A stretch of 53,879 nucleotides of DNA from a virus (Duplodnaviria; Caudoviricetes): positions 1 to 53,879 of the IMG/VR virus record IMGVR_UViG_3300044260_000021, one strand, 5' to 3'. The notes under the pieces are model-generated. The model ran no database searches. It had not been told where the DNA came from and worked only from the letters and a program-made list of their open reading frames with translations. The stretch's first letter is position 1. Each line of letters starts with the position of its first letter. The position numbers and the translations under genes are program-made. Shown here one piece after another: positions 1 through 53,879 of the stretch.

Positions 1-127
1 TCATCAGGGACGCCAGGTAGCCGTAGCTCACCCGCACAGTGGACGGCGCCAGCGTCCGGGACCAGATCATGACGGCGGCCTGCACGTCGGCGCGGGTGAT
101 GTCTTCCAGCGCCCGGCCGGTGAATGA
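1..127. repeat. 127-bp exact terminal overlap with 53753-53879 (circular contig)
   Basis: TCATCAGGGACGCC...GGCCGGTGAATGA occurs at both ends, and joining the ends restores one integrase reading frame. Confidence 0.97.
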
Positions 128-481
128 TGGCAGCACGTCGTTCCGCATGCGCCGGTCGATCGTGTCGCGGGACGAATCCCGCTGGTGAATCTGCTGTTCT
201 TCCCAGCTGGCCGCGTAGTCTTCGAACATGGTTCGGCGGGCGTCCACCGGCCGGTAAACGCCTTTGTGCAGGTCCCCGCGTATTTCGTCCAGCTTCGCCT
301 GGGCGGCAGCCTTGTTAGCGAAGCTGGCCGACCGGCGCCGCCCGCCAGGTTCGGTCCAGCCGACGCGCCAGCGCAGGCCCTGGCCCCAGCGGTCCGTCTT
401 CGCCCGGTCTTTCCCGACGCGGGCGCCCTGCGGGTCGCTCTCTTTGGCCCTGCGGGTCCAGCGGTCTTCTATGGCGGCCAT
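1..481 (-). CDS. int: Tyrosine integrase, N-terminal part (continues across the junction to 53061; ~390 aa in total)
   Basis: Manual translation from ATG 481: MAAIEDRWTRR...GLRWRVGWTEPGGRRRSASF...LEDITRADVQAAV, in frame with ORF 53061-53837; start overlaps the repressor stop (TGATG). Confidence 0.93.
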   Translation of the reverse strand, partial: MAAIEDRWTRRAKESDPQGARVGKDRAKTDRWGQGLRWRVGWTEPGGRRRSASFANKAAAQAKLDEIRGDLHKGVYRPVDARRTMFEDYAASWEEQQIHQRDSSRDTIDRRMRNDVLPSFTGRALEDITRADVQAAVMIWSRTLAPSTVRVSYGYLASLM

Positions 482-1230
482 CAGACCGCGGGCAGTTCGC
501 CGGTCAGCGTGTCGTGGGAGTGCTGGACTTCGGCCTGGGCAGCCATCAGTTCCCCGGCCATGGTCTGCAGCAGTTGACGCGCCGACGGCGGCAGGTTCCC
601 GGCCCCGGCCAGCACCAGCGCGTCGCTGTCCCCGCTGTCCACGTCCAGCCCCAGCGCCACGGCGCAGGCCAGCACCACGTCGGTGACGGACACGCCCAGC
701 CCTTGGGCAAGTCCGCGGATCGTGTTTGCTTTAGGGAAGGCGTCTATCCCGTCGGCTATGATCTGCTGCAGCCGCCGGGGCGTGGGGTCGCCGCCGCAGG
801 CGTCGGATAGGGACGCGATCGTGCGCCCGGCGCGTTTGGATTCGATCAGGGCGCGCAGGCCGCGTTCCCGCGGGCCGGTCTGTCCGGGGCGGGGCGTCAT
901 GACCGCCATGGCCCCGGTGTCGGCGGACCAGGACCACCCGGCCTGTTCGCCGGGCCAGAGTTCGGTCAGTACGTCTTTCACGTCGGCGCGTCCGGCGGCG
1001 GCCAGCTGGTCGCCGGTCACGCCCACGACGCGGGCCATGCGCGCCAGGGTTTCGGCGGGGGCGATAATGGGTATGGACTGGCCCTGCCCGATCGCCTGGT
1101 ATCCGTTGACAATATTTCTCCACCGGGTGTCTGAGATTCCCGCGAGTTCGGCGGCCTTGCGGGCGGACATGCCCCGGCGTTTCTGTGCGTCCTGTAGAAG
1201 TTTACCTTCGGGAGTCTGAATAGTGTTCAT
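481..1230 (-). CDS. Immunity repressor with two XRE-like HTH domains
   Basis: N-terminal MSARKAAELAGISDTRWRNIVNG and second HTH-like TIASLSDACGG...TIRGLAQGLGVS; directly upstream of int and divergent from the early genes. Confidence 0.8.
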   Translation of the reverse strand: MNTIQTPEGKLLQDAQKRRGMSARKAAELAGISDTRWRNIVNGYQAIGQGQSIPIIAPAETLARMARVVGVTGDQLAAAGRADVKDVLTELWPGEQAGWSWSADTGAMAVMTPRPGQTGPRERGLRALIESKRAGRTIASLSDACGGDPTPRRLQQIIADGIDAFPKANTIRGLAQGLGVSVTDVVLACAVALGLDVDSGDSDALVLAGAGNLPPSARQLLQTMAGELMAAQAEVQHSHDTLTGELPAV

Positions 1231-1552: not shown

Positions 1553-1783
1553 ATGACTACTGGGGACAACGCCGACGGTCTCGGGCGTGAATCTGCTACA
1601 ACCATTGCCACGGACGTGCTGCTGATGCACGCCTATCACAACTGCGAAGACGGCCAGAATACGGCCGCCTGCGGCCACCGCTTCGGCAGTGACGCCATCC
1701 CGGACCCCGCAAAAGCCACGATCGAAACGTGCGGGGTCTGCCTGGAATTCGTGAACCTGCCTTGCGCCCGGTGCACGGCATGA
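1553..1783 (+). CDS. Small Cys/His zinc-finger-like protein
   Basis: H...ACGH...CGVC...CARC motifs; first gene after the early promoter. Confidence 0.6.
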   Translation: MTTGDNADGLGRESATTIATDVLLMHAYHNCEDGQNTAACGHRFGSDAIPDPAKATIETCGVCLEFVNLPCARCTA

Positions 1784-1977
1784 GCCGCGAACCTGACCTG
1801 ACGGTCCAGCAGGCGGCCGACGAACTGCAGGTCTGCCCCAAGACGGTCCGCACACTGTGCGCCCGCGGCACGATCCGGTCCTACCGGGCCGGGACGGGGG
1901 GCCGCACGTCGCCCATTCGTATCCGCCGCCGCGACCTGGACAGGTACAAAGACGCGCAGCCCACCCCTAATCAGTAA
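1780..1977 (+). CDS. Excisionase-like (HTH_17) DNA-binding protein
   Basis: LTVQQAADELQVCPKTVRTLCARGTI...IRIRRRDLDRY; ATGA overlap. Confidence 0.85.
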   Translation: MSREPDLTVQQAADELQVCPKTVRTLCARGTIRSYRAGTGGRTSPIRIRRRDLDRYKDAQPTPNQ

Positions 1978-26491: not shown

Positions 26492-26535
26492 AGGTTGGCC
26501 CCGCCGGGGGCATCAGGAAAAAATACCCGGCACCC

Positions 26536-26608
26536 GGCAGTAGAAAAGGCAAGGCGCCAGGGCTGACTGTAAATCGGTCCACGGCAGGTTCGATTCCTGC
26601 TGCTGCCA
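26536..26608 (+). tRNA. Atypical tRNA with GTA anticodon (Tyr) or tRNA-like element
   Basis: Acceptor GGCAGTA/TGCTGCC+A; anticodon loop CTGTAAA; T arm GCAGG-TTCGATT-CCTGC; D arm non-canonical. Confidence 0.7.
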
Positions 26609-26636
26609 CTACCACACAACTAAATAGGGGGCCGCC

Positions 26637-43138: not shown

Positions 43139-45856
43139 GTGTCCACCACCGTGACCCGGACAAACCTTGCCACTAACCCGTCGTTCGAAGCGTCGGGCAG
43201 CACGGCCGAACTGCGCCGTAACTATGTGGAGAACCCCCGCGCGGTCAGCGCGACGACCGGTTGGGGCTATCAGACCGGCACCGGAGAATCAACGACGGTC
43301 ACGAACAGCAACGCGACCGGGCCGGGCCAACTCCCGGGCATGATTACGGCAACGGTCACGACGGCCAAGACAGCGGGTAACTCCGGTTTCTACCGCAATG
43401 AAACAATCAGTGGCGTCACGAACGACTCGTGGACGGCATCGGTATGGGTCCGGTCGTCCGTGGCGATCACGCTGGGCCTGAACGTCACCGTGAAGTCCGC
43501 GGGCGCTACGGTCACGGTGGCGTCCGGCCCGCAGGTCACTCTGGTCGCCAACACATGGTCACGGCTGTCCGCAACCGTGACCAGTACCGGGGCCTATGAC
43601 ACGGTGCAGGCGTGGGCCATCATGAACAGCGGCCAGATTCTCCCCGCCGCGGCCACGTTCGACGCCGCGCAGATGCTCATCGAGGCTGGCACCGTCGTGG
43701 GGTCCTACTTCGACGGGGACTACCCGGCGCCGCTGCGCACGAACTGGGCCAAAAATCCGGAAGCGGTGACCTCCGCTACCGGTTTCGGCGTATACCAGGC
43801 GGGAACCGGAGAAACCGGGACCACGACGTTCGTCTCCGGCGCGTCTGACGGGCCTATCCCGGCCATTACCACCTACGGACGGCAGGCCGTCACGGCCGCC
43901 AAGACAGCCGGTTCCACCGGCTGGCTGTGCAACGCCGGGACCTATCGCGGACCGGCGCAGGGAAACGCCGGGGACACTCTCTACGTCTCGGTATGGGTCC
44001 GGTCGTCCGTGGCTACCTCCATCATCATGAAGGCCTACGCCTACACCAAAACGGGAACCTCCATCAACTCTGCGGACTCCGGGACGTTCACACTCCCGGC
44101 GAACACATGGGTCCGGGTATCGTCCAGCGTGGTCGCCGCCGCCGATTACGACTCCATCGCGTGGTTTGCCTACATGCCAGCCGCCACCATTCTCCCGGTG
44201 GGCGCCACGCTGGACGCCACCGGGTCGCTGTTGGAAAACGCGCCCAGTGACGGTTCCTACTTTTCCGGGACCACGGCGAGTACGTCGGGCATCACTTACG
44301 CGTGGTTCGGTACGGCGAATAACTCCGCGTCGCTGCTGCTGGATAATGACCTGACGTTCGCGTGGACCGGGACCGCGGACGCATCCGCCTCCACCCTGAC
44401 CGTACGCAAGGTTACCGGAGTCGGCGGCTCCGGACTCACGTACCGCTCCTCATGGTGGGCAAACAACGGGACCTATTCGCTCCGACAGCCAGCAACCGGG
44501 CTCTACAGTGAATTTGGGATCACCGGGCTAACGCCCGGGCAGACGTACACGGTCATGGCGACCAGCTACAGCACAGCACCAATCGTCGGGACCGGGAACC
44601 GCCGCATGGTCCAGATCCGCGCCTACAGCTCCGCGAACGCCACCCCGCTCACGGTCGTGGCACCGGCCGGGACCGTGGGTGCCTACACCCACACGGGGAC
44701 GTTTGTTTGCCCGTCCGACGCGACCAGCTACGCTGTCCGGTTTACCCCGGACCAGTCAGGCGGCACGGACGTGTGGTGGGATTCCGCCATGGTCGTGCCA
44801 GGGACCTACACCGGCCCCTACTTCGACGGCAACACGCCGCCCTTCACGAACACCGCCTACACCCCGGCCGCGCAGACCTCGTTCACGTGGACGGGCGCAG
44901 TCAACGGGTCCACGTCCGTGCAGACGGACATCGTGCCGCTGCAGAACTACCAGGTGCAGCTGCCCGGGGCCGTGATCGTGGGCGCCGGTACGGGCGTGAA
45001 CCTGCTGTCCGTCACCGGCCTGCGGGACCTCGCGGCGATCCGGTCCGGCGACGAATCCCGGCCGCTGGCCGACGGCGCCTACCCGGGCCTGGCCTACCTG
45101 GGCGAACGCGTCCTGACGATCAAATGGGACCTGACCATGGCGGCCGGGCTGGAAACCGGACTGCAGGTACTGTCCGCCGGTTTCCAGAACGTGCCCGACC
45201 CGTCCGCGGTCTGCATGACTGCCGGGGACTACCTGCGGCAGCAGGCAGGCATCGGGGCGACCAAACCCGTGTCGGCGCTGCAGCTGCAACTGCCTGGCAG
45301 GGCCGTGGCGCTGATGGTGTTCGGGCGGCCGACGAAACACGCGGTCCCGATCGACCTGGACTACCAGTGGGGACAGGCCCACCCGGTGTCCGAATGGACC
45401 AGCCCGGACGGCGTGATCTACGACGCCACAGTGGTGCCCGGCACTACCACCCTGCCGTCGCCCACGTCGGGCCTGACCTGGGCCGCCGCGTTCCCGTGGA
45501 CGTTCGGTTCGTCCGCTGGCGGGTCGCTGTCCCTGAGCAACTCGGGGAACTACCCGGCGAACCCGCTATTCGTGATCCAAGGGCCGGTTTCCTACCCGAA
45601 GATCACGAACACGGTAACGGGCCAGTTCGTGTACCTGAACATCGTGCTGGGCGCCGCGGACACGCTCGTGGTGGACCACCAGGCCGGGACCGTGACGCTG
45701 AACGCGACGGCGAACCGTAACAACGCCGTGGCCGCGGGGTCGTCGTTTTTCACCCTCGCGCCGGGCACAACCAGCGTCGGTTTCTCGTCCGCTGATTCGT
45801 CCGCCGTCGCGGGCACCCTGACCGGCTACCTGCTGCCGACCTACTCAACCGTCTAA
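43139..45856 (+). CDS. Distal tail protein with N-terminal carbohydrate-binding-like modules
   Basis: TNLATNPSFE/YFDG repeats; C-terminal Dit motifs (PWTF, NSGNYPANP.F.I.GP, FFTLAPG). Confidence 0.8.
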   Translation: MSTTVTRTNLATNPSFEASGSTAELRRNYVENPRAVSATTGWGYQTGTGESTTVTNSNATGPGQLPGMITATVTTAKTAGNSGFYRNETISGVTNDSWTASVWVRSSVAITLGLNVTVKSAGATVTVASGPQVTLVANTWSRLSATVTSTGAYDTVQAWAIMNSGQILPAAATFDAAQMLIEAGTVVGSYFDGDYPAPLRTNWAKNPEAVTSATGFGVYQAGTGETGTTTFVSGASDGPIPAITTYGRQAVTAAKTAGSTGWLCNAGTYRGPAQGNAGDTLYVSVWVRSSVATSIIMKAYAYTKTGTSINSADSGTFTLPANTWVRVSSSVVAAADYDSIAWFAYMPAATILPVGATLDATGSLLENAPSDGSYFSGTTASTSGITYAWFGTANNSASLLLDNDLTFAWTGTADASASTLTVRKVTGVGGSGLTYRSSWWANNGTYSLRQPATGLYSEFGITGLTPGQTYTVMATSYSTAPIVGTGNRRMVQIRAYSSANATPLTVVAPAGTVGAYTHTGTFVCPSDATSYAVRFTPDQSGGTDVWWDSAMVVPGTYTGPYFDGNTPPFTNTAYTPAAQTSFTWTGAVNGSTSVQTDIVPLQNYQVQLPGAVIVGAGTGVNLLSVTGLRDLAAIRSGDESRPLADGAYPGLAYLGERVLTIKWDLTMAAGLETGLQVLSAGFQNVPDPSAVCMTAGDYLRQQAGIGATKPVSALQLQLPGRAVALMVFGRPTKHAVPIDLDYQWGQAHPVSEWTSPDGVIYDATVVPGTTTLPSPTSGLTWAAAFPWTFGSSAGGSLSLSNSGNYPANPLFVIQGPVSYPKITNTVTGQFVYLNIVLGAADTLVVDHQAGTVTLNATANRNNAVAAGSSFFTLAPGTTSVGFSSADSSAVAGTLTGYLLPTYSTV

Positions 45857-51534: not shown

Positions 51535-51575
51535 GCCCCCGGCATCACGTTACTGTGATGGCCGGGGGCTTTTTT
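51535..51575 (+). terminator. Late operon terminator
   Basis: GCCCCCGGC...GCCGGGGGC-TTTTTT. Confidence 0.8.
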
Positions 51576-51717
51576 CGTTTCCCTCAACGTAGTGTTTGAG
51601 CGCTTCGCGGATCACGTCACTCAGGCTTTCCCCGCGCTCTGCGGCAGCCGCCTTCGCGGCATCCCACAGCCCGTCATCGACGCGGACTGTGCGGTGAGTG
51701 GTGCCTCTAGTCGGCAT
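51550..51717 (-). CDS. Ribbon-helix-helix (Arc/CopG-like) repressor
   Basis: Manual translation MPTRGTTHRTVRVDDGLWDAAKAAAAERGESLSDVIREALKHYV. Confidence 0.85.
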   Translation of the reverse strand: MPTRGTTHRTVRVDDGLWDAAKAAAAERGESLSDVIREALKHYVEGNEKSPRPSQ

Positions 51718-51910
51718 GAGCGGACTTCCATTCTTCTATGAGCCACGCGTCAGCTTCGCTATAGTCAGTGGCGCGGTAGGCGCCTTGCATGATGGGGCGG
51801 CGCCTAATCATGTGACCGTTGTAGAGCCTCGCCCGCTCCGGCCCGTTCTCCATGTTGACGACCCACGCCGCGGCCTGCCGTGCGGGTGACTCGACGGACT
51901 GCCCGGCCAC
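51707..51910 (-). CDS. Hypothetical protein
   Basis: Middle gene of the leftward three-gene cassette. Confidence 0.6.
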   Translation of the reverse strand: MAGQSVESPARQAAAWVVNMENGPERARLYNGHMIRRRPIMQGAYRATDYSEADAWLIEEWKSAHAD

Positions 51911-51911
51911 C

Positions 51912-52088
51912 TTAGGCGACCTTTGAGCCGTAGCTGAGGCCGGTAGCCGCTACCACGCGGTACATGGTGCCCAGCTTGTTGATAGCTTCCAGCGCCGTGG
52001 CGCGGTCCATATCCTTCCAGAACACCTTGTTGAAGGCGTCTACGATGTCGAAGCTTTCAACTTCGGTGCTGAGGGAAAGGATCTGCAT
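51912..52088 (-). CDS. Hypothetical protein (58 aa)
   Basis: AGGAGG RBS before ATG 52088 (MQILSLSTEV...). Confidence 0.7.
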   Translation of the reverse strand: MQILSLSTEVESFDIVDAFNKVFWKDMDRATALEAINKLGTMYRVVAATGLSYGSKVA

Positions 52089-52132
52089 GGCTGCCTCCTG
52101 GCGGCTCGGTATCGGCTTGTTCCGATATGAAG

Positions 52133-52162
52133 AATCTATCAGGGTGTATATACACCTGTCAA
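52133..52162 (-). promoter_or_regulatory. Promoter with palindromic operator
   Basis: TTGACA-18 bp-TAGATT; GGTGTATATACACC at 52143-52156 in the spacer. Confidence 0.8.
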
Positions 52163-52176
52163 CACCCTGACGCCCT

Positions 52177-52397
52177 CGGGTGTAACTCGGGTGTTCCAAG
52201 TGTTCCCAAGGGTGCAACGTTCGTGCGTAGTTTGCCTAAGTTCGCACCCCGGCGAAAGCAGCGAAAAACCCCCAAAAACCCCTAGAAATCAAGGGGAAAG
52301 CGGGGGTTTGGGTGGATGGGTTGACCGATACGCCGGGATATGTGGGGAACCGGCCCTGACCTGCGGAAATGTACCTGCCGGGTGTTACTCGGGTGTT
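52177..52397. other. attP: arm-type repeats flanking a core resembling the 3' end of rnpB
   Basis: CGGGTGT(A/T)ACTCGGGTGTT at 52177-52195 and 52379-52397; minus strand 52343-52314 reads ACATATCCCGGCGTATCGGTCAACCCATCC; non-coding, downstream of int. Confidence 0.72.
52264..52309 (-). terminator. Terminator following the rnpB-like core
   Basis: Minus strand AAACCCCC..CCCC-TTGATTTCTA-GGGG..GGGGGTTTTT. Confidence 0.6.
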
Positions 52398-52404
52398 GGG
52401 AGAA

Positions 52405-52980
52405 TCAGGCGCGGGCGTGGGTGTAGAGCTTCGCACGTCCAGCGCGGGCTGCATCGGCTGCCGCTTCGGGCGTCGCATGGTATCCAAACGAGTGGGCACG
52501 GCCGCGCAGCTTCACCCGGGCGTGCCAGCGTCCGCTGGCCTTGTGGTAAGAAACGCCGCGCAGGCCGATTCCGTTCTGGCGGTCCGGCTTTAGGTTTTGC
52601 CCGTTCTGCGCATGGGTGCACAGACGCAAGTGCTCGGGATTGACGCAGTAGCAGTGATTGAAGTGGTCAATGTCCATGCCGGGCGGGATTGGGCCGTGGG
52701 TGTATTCCCAAATCCAGCGGTGCGCATAGTCGCGTTTGCCGCTGTCTGCAAAGCGTCCGTATTCTTGGGGGCCGGTGTTTTCCCAGCGCCAGCAGCCGGT
52801 GGCGGCCTCAACTGTGACTTTTTGCATGAACCGTGCGAGCGGGTCCGCGCCGCGCTGGTAGTCCCGGATTGGGGTAAGTTCCTGGCCGCGCCGTGCCTGC
52901 CGGTTGTGGGTTTGGCAGCGGCCCTTCGCCTCAATGGGACGACCGCAGGCGGGGAATGAGCAGGTGCTAACATCGGACAT
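52405..52980 (-). CDS. HNH endonuclease with AP2-like C-terminus
   Basis: CSFPAC..C..H; CWRW; AHRW; IDH..HCYCVNPEHL; GLRGVSY...WHARV. Confidence 0.9.
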   Translation of the reverse strand: MSDVSTCSFPACGRPIEAKGRCQTHNRQARRGQELTPIRDYQRGADPLARFMQKVTVEAATGCWRWENTGPQEYGRFADSGKRDYAHRWIWEYTHGPIPPGMDIDHFNHCYCVNPEHLRLCTHAQNGQNLKPDRQNGIGLRGVSYHKASGRWHARVKLRGRAHSFGYHATPEAAADAARAGRAKLYTHARA

Positions 52981-53060
52981 ATCGACTCCTAAACGGTCGG
53001 TCATGACCCCGGGCGGTGCCAGCCGCCGCGGGGTTTCCTTATGCCAACATCATACGCCTG

Positions 53061-53879
53061 TCAAGCGTCGTCGTGCGGAAGTTGCACGAGTCCGTCCGAA
53101 AGTGCGGCTGATCGTTCATCATCGTCAGGCCATAGGTGACTATAGGTGCGCAGGGTTTCGTGGGCGTCTTTGTGTCCCAGTCGGTGCGCGACGGCGACCG
53201 GGGACATGCCCCCGGCGATCAGCAGCGACGCGTGGTAGTGGCGCAGCTGGTGCCAGCCGTCGCCCACGTCACCGTGGCCGGACTTGACCAGCGCGGCCCG
53301 CACGTCGCGCCACGCTTCGCCCGCAGCGCCCCGCAGGATCGCCGCCCGCTGTACGTTCCCGAACACCAGCCCGCCGACGTTCCTGGGGCCGTCCTGCAGG
53401 CCGCGCAGCATGTCCACGGTGGCCGGGCCTATGGCTATGCGCCGGATGCTGGCGCGGGACTTCGGCGGCCCCCACTGCGGGGCGTGGGAATTCGTGCCGA
53501 TCAGCTGCCGGTCCACCCGGACCATGCCGCCGGGCAGGTCCACCCGGTCCCATGTCAGGCCCCGTAGTTCGGCGGACCGCAGCCCGGTCGCTGCGCAGAA
53601 AATGACCATGGGCCGGTAGCCGGTCCAGATCGTGTCCGCGATCCGCTGCACCTGTGCCGTGGGCAGCGGCACGACGGGCACGTGTTCAAGCTTGGGCAGG
53701 CGGACGCCCACGCACGGGGACGCCTGCAGGTGGCCGTCCAGTACGGCCGCTTTCATCAGGGACGCCAGGTAGCCGTAGCTCACCCGCACAGTGGACGGCG
53801 CCAGCGTCCGGGACCAGATCATGACGGCGGCCTGCACGTCGGCGCGGGTGATGTCTTCCAGCGCCCGGCCGGTGAATGA
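53061..53879 (-). CDS. int: Tyrosine integrase, catalytic C-terminal part
   Basis: TGLRSAE (R), PKS (K), HQLRH, LGH, TLRTY catalytic motifs. Confidence 0.96.
   Translation of the reverse strand, partial: SFTGRALEDITRADVQAAVMIWSRTLAPSTVRVSYGYLASLMKAAVLDGHLQASPCVGVRLPKLEHVPVVPLPTAQVQRIADTIWTGYRPMVIFCAATGLRSAELRGLTWDRVDLPGGMVRVDRQLIGTNSHAPQWGPPKSRASIRRIAIGPATVDMLRGLQDGPRNVGGLVFGNVQRAAILRGAAGEAWRDVRAALVKSGHGDVGDGWHQLRHYHASLLIAGGMSPVAVAHRLGHKDAHETLRTYSHLWPDDDERSAALSDGLVQLPHDDA

Follow-up and report, generated by a model that had tools for sequence, protein, structure and literature searches.

A temperate Arthrobacter-group phage with a predicted attP matching the 3' end of host rnpB

Direct terminal repeats of 127 bp make the window (the whole 53,879-nucleotide stretch that was analysed) a complete virus record, i.e., a circle. 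We consider it very likely that this temperate Arthrobacter-group phage uses a tyrosine integrase to recombine its attP with the 3' end of host rnpB, the gene for the RNase P RNA. Integration into rnpB, as proposed in the first-pass annotation, is seen in a collinear relative and across the integrase clade, and sequence comparison predicts the same for the phage itself.

Lysogeny genes and the attP region

In its packaging region the phage is closest to Mufasa8 and Sonali, both Arthrobacter phages (about 71%, with 27-29% of the query covered), and the integrase region shows its greatest likeness to the phages TripleJ and Kukla. The integrase (390 aa in all) is encoded in an open frame on the minus strand that spans the 127-bp terminal repeat (481 to 53061), and the catalytic motifs (R/K/H-x-x-R/H/Y), with the roles that we take them to have in integrases, were located in its sequence. 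The phage also encodes a tRNA-Tyr(GTA) at 26533-26609 (+), ahead of the packaging genes; this is the sole tRNA of the window (ARAGORN). The features of the lysogeny region are given in Table 1.

Table 1. Lysogeny genes and elements of the predicted attP in the window.
Feature	Position	Strand	Remarks
Tyrosine integrase, C-terminal 272 aa	53061..53879	-	PF00589, E 4.7e-14
Integrase, N-terminal part	1..481	-	Same gene, continued over the terminal repeat
Repressor-like gene	481..1230	-	Upstream of integrase; phrog_12831, E 3.1e-16
Excisionase-like gene	1780..1977	+	Divergent from repressor; phrog_66, E 2.3e-7
HNH-AP2 endonuclease gene	52405..53004	-	Within the last integrase codons; integrase-to-attP gap about 650 bp
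P-arm pair, predicted arm-type integrase sites	52379..52397	-	In remnant of the original last integrase codons
Left core-type flank ACATAT	52338..52343	-	Two mismatches (52340, 52338) to host ACAGAA; common to phage contig L126
Predicted 7-bp overlap CCCGGCG	52331..52337	-	7 of 8 nt of the P4 3' strand
attP core	52314..52337	-	Identical to the final 24 nt of rnpB in the Arthrobacter group
Long hairpin and T5, predicted intrinsic terminator	52264..52309	-	Directly past the core
P'-arm pair, predicted arm-type integrase sites	52177..52195	-	Direct repeat of the P-arm pair
Predicted Sigma70-like promoter match	52133..52162	-	Just past the P' arm; 10/12 match; 0.4 expected in shuffles

The minus-strand letters that the first-pass annotation gave for 52343-52314 were confirmed on the sequence, and its identification of them as the 3' end of rnpB is borne out. 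The 24-mer at 52337-52314, which comprises the P4 3' strand, a linker, and the P1 3' strand, occurs exactly in at least 121 bacterial loci in GTDB (about 200 estimated), with a chance expectation of 0.004-0.016. An rnpB-type upstream sequence (upstream motif) was found in 117 of the 121 loci listed, the other four being orphan copies. When 20 loci were submitted to Rfam, 14 gave a full match to RF00010 that ends one base past the 24-mer; the six that did not were three orphan copies and three viral loci. The searched core region thus leads to the 3' end of RF00010 loci, as had been anticipated.

The listed hosts of the 24-mer are mostly Arthrobacter, Pseudarthrobacter, and Paenarthrobacter, with a few Rhodoluna and other Actinomycetota. 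The proposal that the core could identify the host therefore holds for the genus group and not for the species, the 24-mer being common to all four of the named genera. Short rnpB genes that end in the Arthrobacter 24-mer were also noted at six loci (L015, L045, L046, L061, L079, and L087; Rhodoluna-like, Micrococcales/Actinomycetota), and the site is thus present beyond the Micrococcaceae.

The length first assigned to the core, 30 bp, did not stand. The full 30-mer (52343-52314) has no exact match in GTDB genomes, owing to two differences between window and host, at 52340 and 52338: the host flank reads ACAGAA in 115 of 117 listed rnpB loci, and that of the window ACATAT. The core common to phage and host is thus 24-25 bp, with the 25th base pair (52313) shared by 95 of the 117 hosts (rnpB loci among the matches listed). 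The window carries only the last 24-30 nt of RNase P RNA, as opposed to a full-length class A molecule, and Rfam returned no RNase P match on the window region (three weak sRNA matches, none at the core) because the fragment is too short. ARAGORN found no tRNA at the attP site, in agreement with the earlier remark that no tRNA 3' half is visible there; the target is RF00010 in place of a tRNA or tmRNA gene. As in a lambda-type attP, the short core is identical to a host chromosomal site.

The two 19-bp arm-type repeats reported to surround the core were located at the positions claimed for them. They are direct repeats with 95% identity, each made up of two ACACCCG units 11 bp apart, and such repeat pairs on both sides of the core are consistent with the arms of a lambda-type attP. 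A CAGGTCAG-containing motif at 52353-52370 (-), just 5' of the core, recurs in the P arms of L051, L126, L145, and L146, with weak matches in Mycobacterium and Gordonia phages; it is possibly a host-factor site.

The hairpin and T tract described after the core are present, with hairpin arms at 52266-52286 and 52289-52309 and five T at 52268-52264, three of these inside the predicted stem. The hairpin with T5 has a folding energy of -23.7 kcal/mol (z = -3.59, 96-nt stretch; equalled by none of 200 shuffles), and similar hairpins occur in L126 and at the gene-side junction of the integrated relative G001; a simple terminator scan found one terminator versus 1.3 expected, which is not above shuffles. 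By the heuristic that scored these hairpins, as distinct from the simple scan, terminator-like ends were identified in only 3 of 116 rnpB loci, one of the three being the G001 junction, which points to a phage-supplied element in the subgroup of the window. The claim that the phage supplies a new terminator stands as a prediction (hairpin with T5) and does not extend to the whole group: several rnpB-targeting relatives lack one, including Kukla and several prophage junctions for which the heuristic found no terminator. In the free circle, the predicted terminator would equally end transcription of the integrase and HNH genes.

The predicted promoter at 52133..52162 (-) faces three small leftward genes. 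These occupy the holin-attP interval (51550-52162, minus strand) and encode proteins of 58 aa, 67 aa, and 55 aa, the last an Arc-like ribbon-helix-helix protein; in a lysogen they would sit just past rnpB. A related low-depth contig (run X1) has 692 different bases at this place.

The HNH-AP2 gene has altered the end of the integrase. The L126 integrase (95% identical over 73 aa) finishes with ...SDGLILPTPE, and the P-arm sites fall within its last codons. In the window, the HNH-AP2 gene separates SDGL from a leftover LILPTPE, so that the integrase has acquired a new tail. An HNH gene is absent at the integrase end in both L126 and G001. Nucleotide differences between the window and L126 number three in the first 48 codons compared and about one per codon beside the insertion; this gradient (53061-53120, next to the HNH gene) is as expected of a homing event, which suggests that the gene arrived in this way at an integrase/attP junction. 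The attP itself is intact despite the insertion.

An integrated relative and the integrase clade

Splitting and restoration of rnpB were observed in Arthrobacter sp. efr-133-TYG-118 (G001, contig C5), the nearest neighbour of the window in the integrase tree (100/98). A 56.5-kb prophage, delimited by cores at 72983 and 129505 (loci L038 and L051), lies there between an intact rnpB and a displaced 3' fragment, and this interval is collinear end to end with the window opened at the core, except for one HNH protein match elsewhere. Alignment by blastn extends over 26,213 of 53,752 nt, and the integrases are 75% identical over 383 aa. One end consists of a complete rnpB (RF00010, 299 bits) followed by DNA like the hairpin and P' arm of the window (gene-side junction, L038); the other consists of the integrase, DNA like the P arm (fragment-side junction, L051), and then the orphan core. 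The 300 nt past the orphan core match post-rnpB DNA in 37 of 78 other loci (up to 98.7%), and the 300 nt past the restored rnpB match none of the 78. The G001 relative therefore combines an intact gene, a displaced fragment, and continuity with the empty site, and the restoration of the rnpB 3' end that had been postulated is seen in its gene-side copy. A 14-nt motif, allowing at most one substitution, is absent from the window and occurs only twice in the 60 kb spanning the G001 prophage. In all four genomes with orphan cores, an integrase of 60-74% identity adjoins the copy; the elements concerned include one of 7.5 kb (L132) and a very short, decayed-looking one (L136).

Integrase searches gave 22 matches in 20 of 401 Micrococcaceae genomes, 14 of which are rnpB-linked; among 401 Micrococcales genomes, 15 yielded 17 matches, three of them shared with the Micrococcaceae search. 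For 15 hosts (17 integrase loci), each flank was compared with the rnpB end of every host. Nine have a 27-46-nt rnpB fragment just past the integrase that matches its own host best (G119 and G394 tie); of the rest, two abut a whole rnpB, one has a decayed fragment (16 nt), and five have no fragment, and for G147, where rnpB is cut by the contig end, the flank comparison is void. In many cases rnpB is found on the same strand, 5-54 kb upstream of the integrase locus.

The expectation that integrase homologues would be found near rnpB was likewise confirmed in the integrase tree, where 32 of 47 rows are rnpB-linked: 20 by a same-strand fragment, two by a decayed one, and 10 by an integrase converging on an rnpB-type end (five confirmed by RF00010, five by motif only). 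The supported 10-row clade that holds the window is rnpB-linked throughout (10/10), with the qualification that rows G001-G004, L125, and TripleJ/Kukla were first found via the core or DNA similarity and are not independent. Of the 15 rows without an rnpB link, four offer less than 200 nt of flank; displacement, or use of another site, may account for the other 11. Several loci are redundant: L159-L163 share one fragment and do not differ in match statistics, and the tree includes L161 alone of these; it omits L164 (L126, partial); L134 and L138 are one site; and L158 is identical to L185. An opposite-strand motif at L147 was rejected as a chance match, being unlike the rnpB end of its own host, in which rnpB is about 550 kb away.

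An rnpB-like stretch could also arise by chance, or as host DNA captured through imprecise excision, with the true attB in a tRNA gene or elsewhere; the tRNA-Tyr gene elsewhere in the window and the position of one distant homologue (L196) near tRNA genes might be read in this way. We regard this as highly improbable. Chance origin is opposed by the low expectation for the 24-mer given above, and both chance and capture by the recurrence of the fragment between arm repeats in many independent elements, where it tracks the rnpB of each host. As for another attB, comparison of the attP region with five host genomes (E < 0.1) yielded solely the rnpB end or the two G001 junctions, and 25 of 26 loci scanned have no tRNA or tmRNA gene. 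The attL/attR pair of G001 contradicts chance and another attB alike.

Recombination with rnpB, the reading that we prefer, is accompanied in the clade by some variation in layout. A second architecture, in which the integrase points to the rnpB 3' end and does not adjoin the displaced fragment, was noted at L141, L149, L187-L191, L193, L197, and L198, and is common in a deep 13-row branch. In the rnpB-targeting element of G003 (L134/L138), about 800 bp separate the integrase from the displaced fragment. G216:C7 encodes two identical integrases 44.5 kb apart (43754-44611 and 88239-89096), each followed by an rnpB fragment, and these are probable tandem prophages at rnpB; G759 and G561 likewise have integrase pairs. 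A phage-like hairpin and T tract past rnpB was seen at L181 (G214) and L180 (G082), where the homologous integrase is distant or on another contig, possibly reflecting another element at the rnpB site.

Crossover position and proposed recombination

P4 is the helix that forms the catalytic centre of RNase P. The 7-mer CCCGGCG pairs with the 5' strand of a helix that we take to be P4, and the two strands covary over hosts (ACG/CGT, AAG/CTT or CTC, GGA/TCC; 18 genes checked). The 5' P4 motif was found in 76 loci, in every case in a form compatible with the window, and in 61 of the 76 the 5' P1 strand is exactly complementary to the final 13 nt of the core, so that the phage copy would restore P1. 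In the window, in L126, and in the G119 and G394 integrated elements, phage and host are identical from the first C of CCCGG onwards (52337 in the window); in G038 the match reaches one base further back. Since this C is exactly the first base of the P4 3' strand, these comparisons support a crossover within the P4 segment, as the first-pass annotation had it, and the P4 3' strand itself is the most likely overlap.

The same annotation framed the overlap as ATA-TCCCGGCG-TAT. An 8-bp overlap of this kind would have rnpB as target all the same and tolerate one mismatch at its first base, and the flanks of the window and L126 do form a better inverted repeat in the 8-bp register (4/6, versus 1/6 in the 7-bp register). 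Lambda-type integrases normally need homology in the overlap, and the first base of the 8-bp frame is T in the phage as against A in the host, A being present in 117 of 117 listed rnpB loci. Moreover, L157 has a perfect inverted repeat (6/6) flanking the 7-mer, and L137, L139, L145, and L146 score 4/6 in the 7-bp register; all five score 0-1/6 in the 8-bp register. In the 7-bp register, scores other than that of L157 are 1-4/6. The 7-bp overlap, whose predicted limits are provisional, suits the clade better, and we consider the 8-bp frame unlikely.

In the proposed reaction, the integrase would occupy the paired arm sites together with weak core-type sites and cut around CCCGGCG, the 7-bp overlap that encodes the P4 3' strand; the phage copy would then supply the P4 3' and P1 3' strands. 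The ribozyme gene would be rebuilt unchanged, with the host's own 24-30-nt end moved to the far junction, and the restored gene would never receive the two phage/host mismatches, which lie 5' of the overlap. Placed right after rnpB, the hairpin with T5 would probably block rnpB transcription from running into the prophage, and the excisionase-like gene would direct the reverse reaction.

The core could be a genuine rnpB-type attP that has become a non-functional relic, through the HNH insertion or the flank mismatches, in a phage that is now lytic or extrachromosomal; we judge this to be improbable, though less so than a chance origin or another attB. Consistent with a relic, the C-terminus of the integrase has been replaced through the HNH insertion, and an integrated copy of the exact phage variant was found neither in GTDB nor in metagenomes: the 29-mer of the core with its mismatched flank has no match in metagenomes, and the flanked core none in GTDB. 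The one run that contains the DNA of this phage (contigs only, and possibly its source) had no attL/attR junction among the pieces listed, which decides nothing either way. Several features argue against a relic: the integrase frame is open and retains its catalytic motifs, and both arm pairs and the repressor-like and excisionase-like genes are present. Both mismatches recur in L126, where no HNH gene is present at that position, and in G119 and G394, too, the integrated elements diverge from the host sequence right up to the first C of CCCGG. On the reading of a functional attP, the two natural flank mismatches mark the crossover position.

Relation to other RNA-gene attachment sites

The mechanism is already known for tRNA and tmRNA targets, and other RNA-gene targets (ffs, csRNA) are in print. 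Work on Islander describes tyrosine-integrase elements in the 3' parts of tRNA and tmRNA genes that split and restore the target and leave a displaced 3' fragment at the far end (PMC4383910). The elements described here resemble them in the tyrosine integrase, the target that is split and restored, and the displaced fragment, and differ in that the target is rnpB, a single-copy ribozyme gene; the predicted crossover is in the P4 3' strand, whereas that of Islander elements is in the anticodon loop, the T loop, or the T/acceptor junction. Islander covers tRNA and tmRNA only, and "RNase P" and "rnpB" do not occur in its text (PMC4383910). Enterococcus phage phiEf11 is reported to have its attB in ffs, the gene for the SRP 4.5S RNA, with sites tested by PCR (PMC12540744). 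That phage shares with the present one a short core (27 nt in phiEf11) near the integrase end and a target in a housekeeping non-coding RNA gene beyond tRNA and tmRNA; the RNA, the host phylum, and the phage are different, and the evidence is PCR-based there and computational here. The phiEf11 report cites pneumococcal prophages in csRNA genes, in which, by the cited title, insertion alters the RNA (cited in PMC12540744); these likewise use a non-coding RNA gene as attB, and in the case of rnpB the gene would be rebuilt unchanged.

The literature search found no published rnpB attB, although TIGER, ProBord, subscription papers, and phage-database notes may list such sites. In the accessible portions of PMC8776855, PMC2885270, PMC2864759, and PMC3541175, rnpB appears only as a promoter, an annotation, or in a reference title, and PMC12884075 had no match for the terms searched. 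In ProBord, non-coding RNA accounts for 13.5% of RNA targets, with rnpB unnamed in the available text or one supplement (PMC13626063), and PMC12424338 recognises only tRNA/tmRNA, CDS, and intergenic site classes.

The essential RNase P ribozyme gene would thus join the RNA-gene attB classes known so far, with a predicted crossover in the helix of the catalytic centre. On balance, we favour a broader reading, in which the P4 helix of rnpB joins tRNA and tmRNA genes as a third major class of docking site in RNA genes. It would be used by one Micrococcales clade (phages and small islands) in two architectures, always at the P4 3' strand, with cores that follow the P4 and P1 of the host, so that a catalytic helix sets the site of lysogeny. 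Finders limited to tRNA and tmRNA would miss or misclassify such prophages and islands and, on this broader reading, have so far overlooked the class.

The claim is directly testable, since at least two cultured phages on A. globiformis, TripleJ (NC_049470) and Kukla (PQ362669), carry the same rnpB core, about 60 nt past the integrase match. Their integrases are about 64% identical to that of the window, and 39-40 bp are identical to the rnpB end of A. globiformis NBRC 12137. They differ from the window in the sequence of the arm sites and in having neither an HNH insertion nor a flank mismatch, and their records have no annotated feature at the core. Because the 24-mer is conserved in Arthrobacter, Pseudarthrobacter, and Paenarthrobacter, the integrase gene together with attP could give a broad-range, gene-preserving vector for such soil bacteria.
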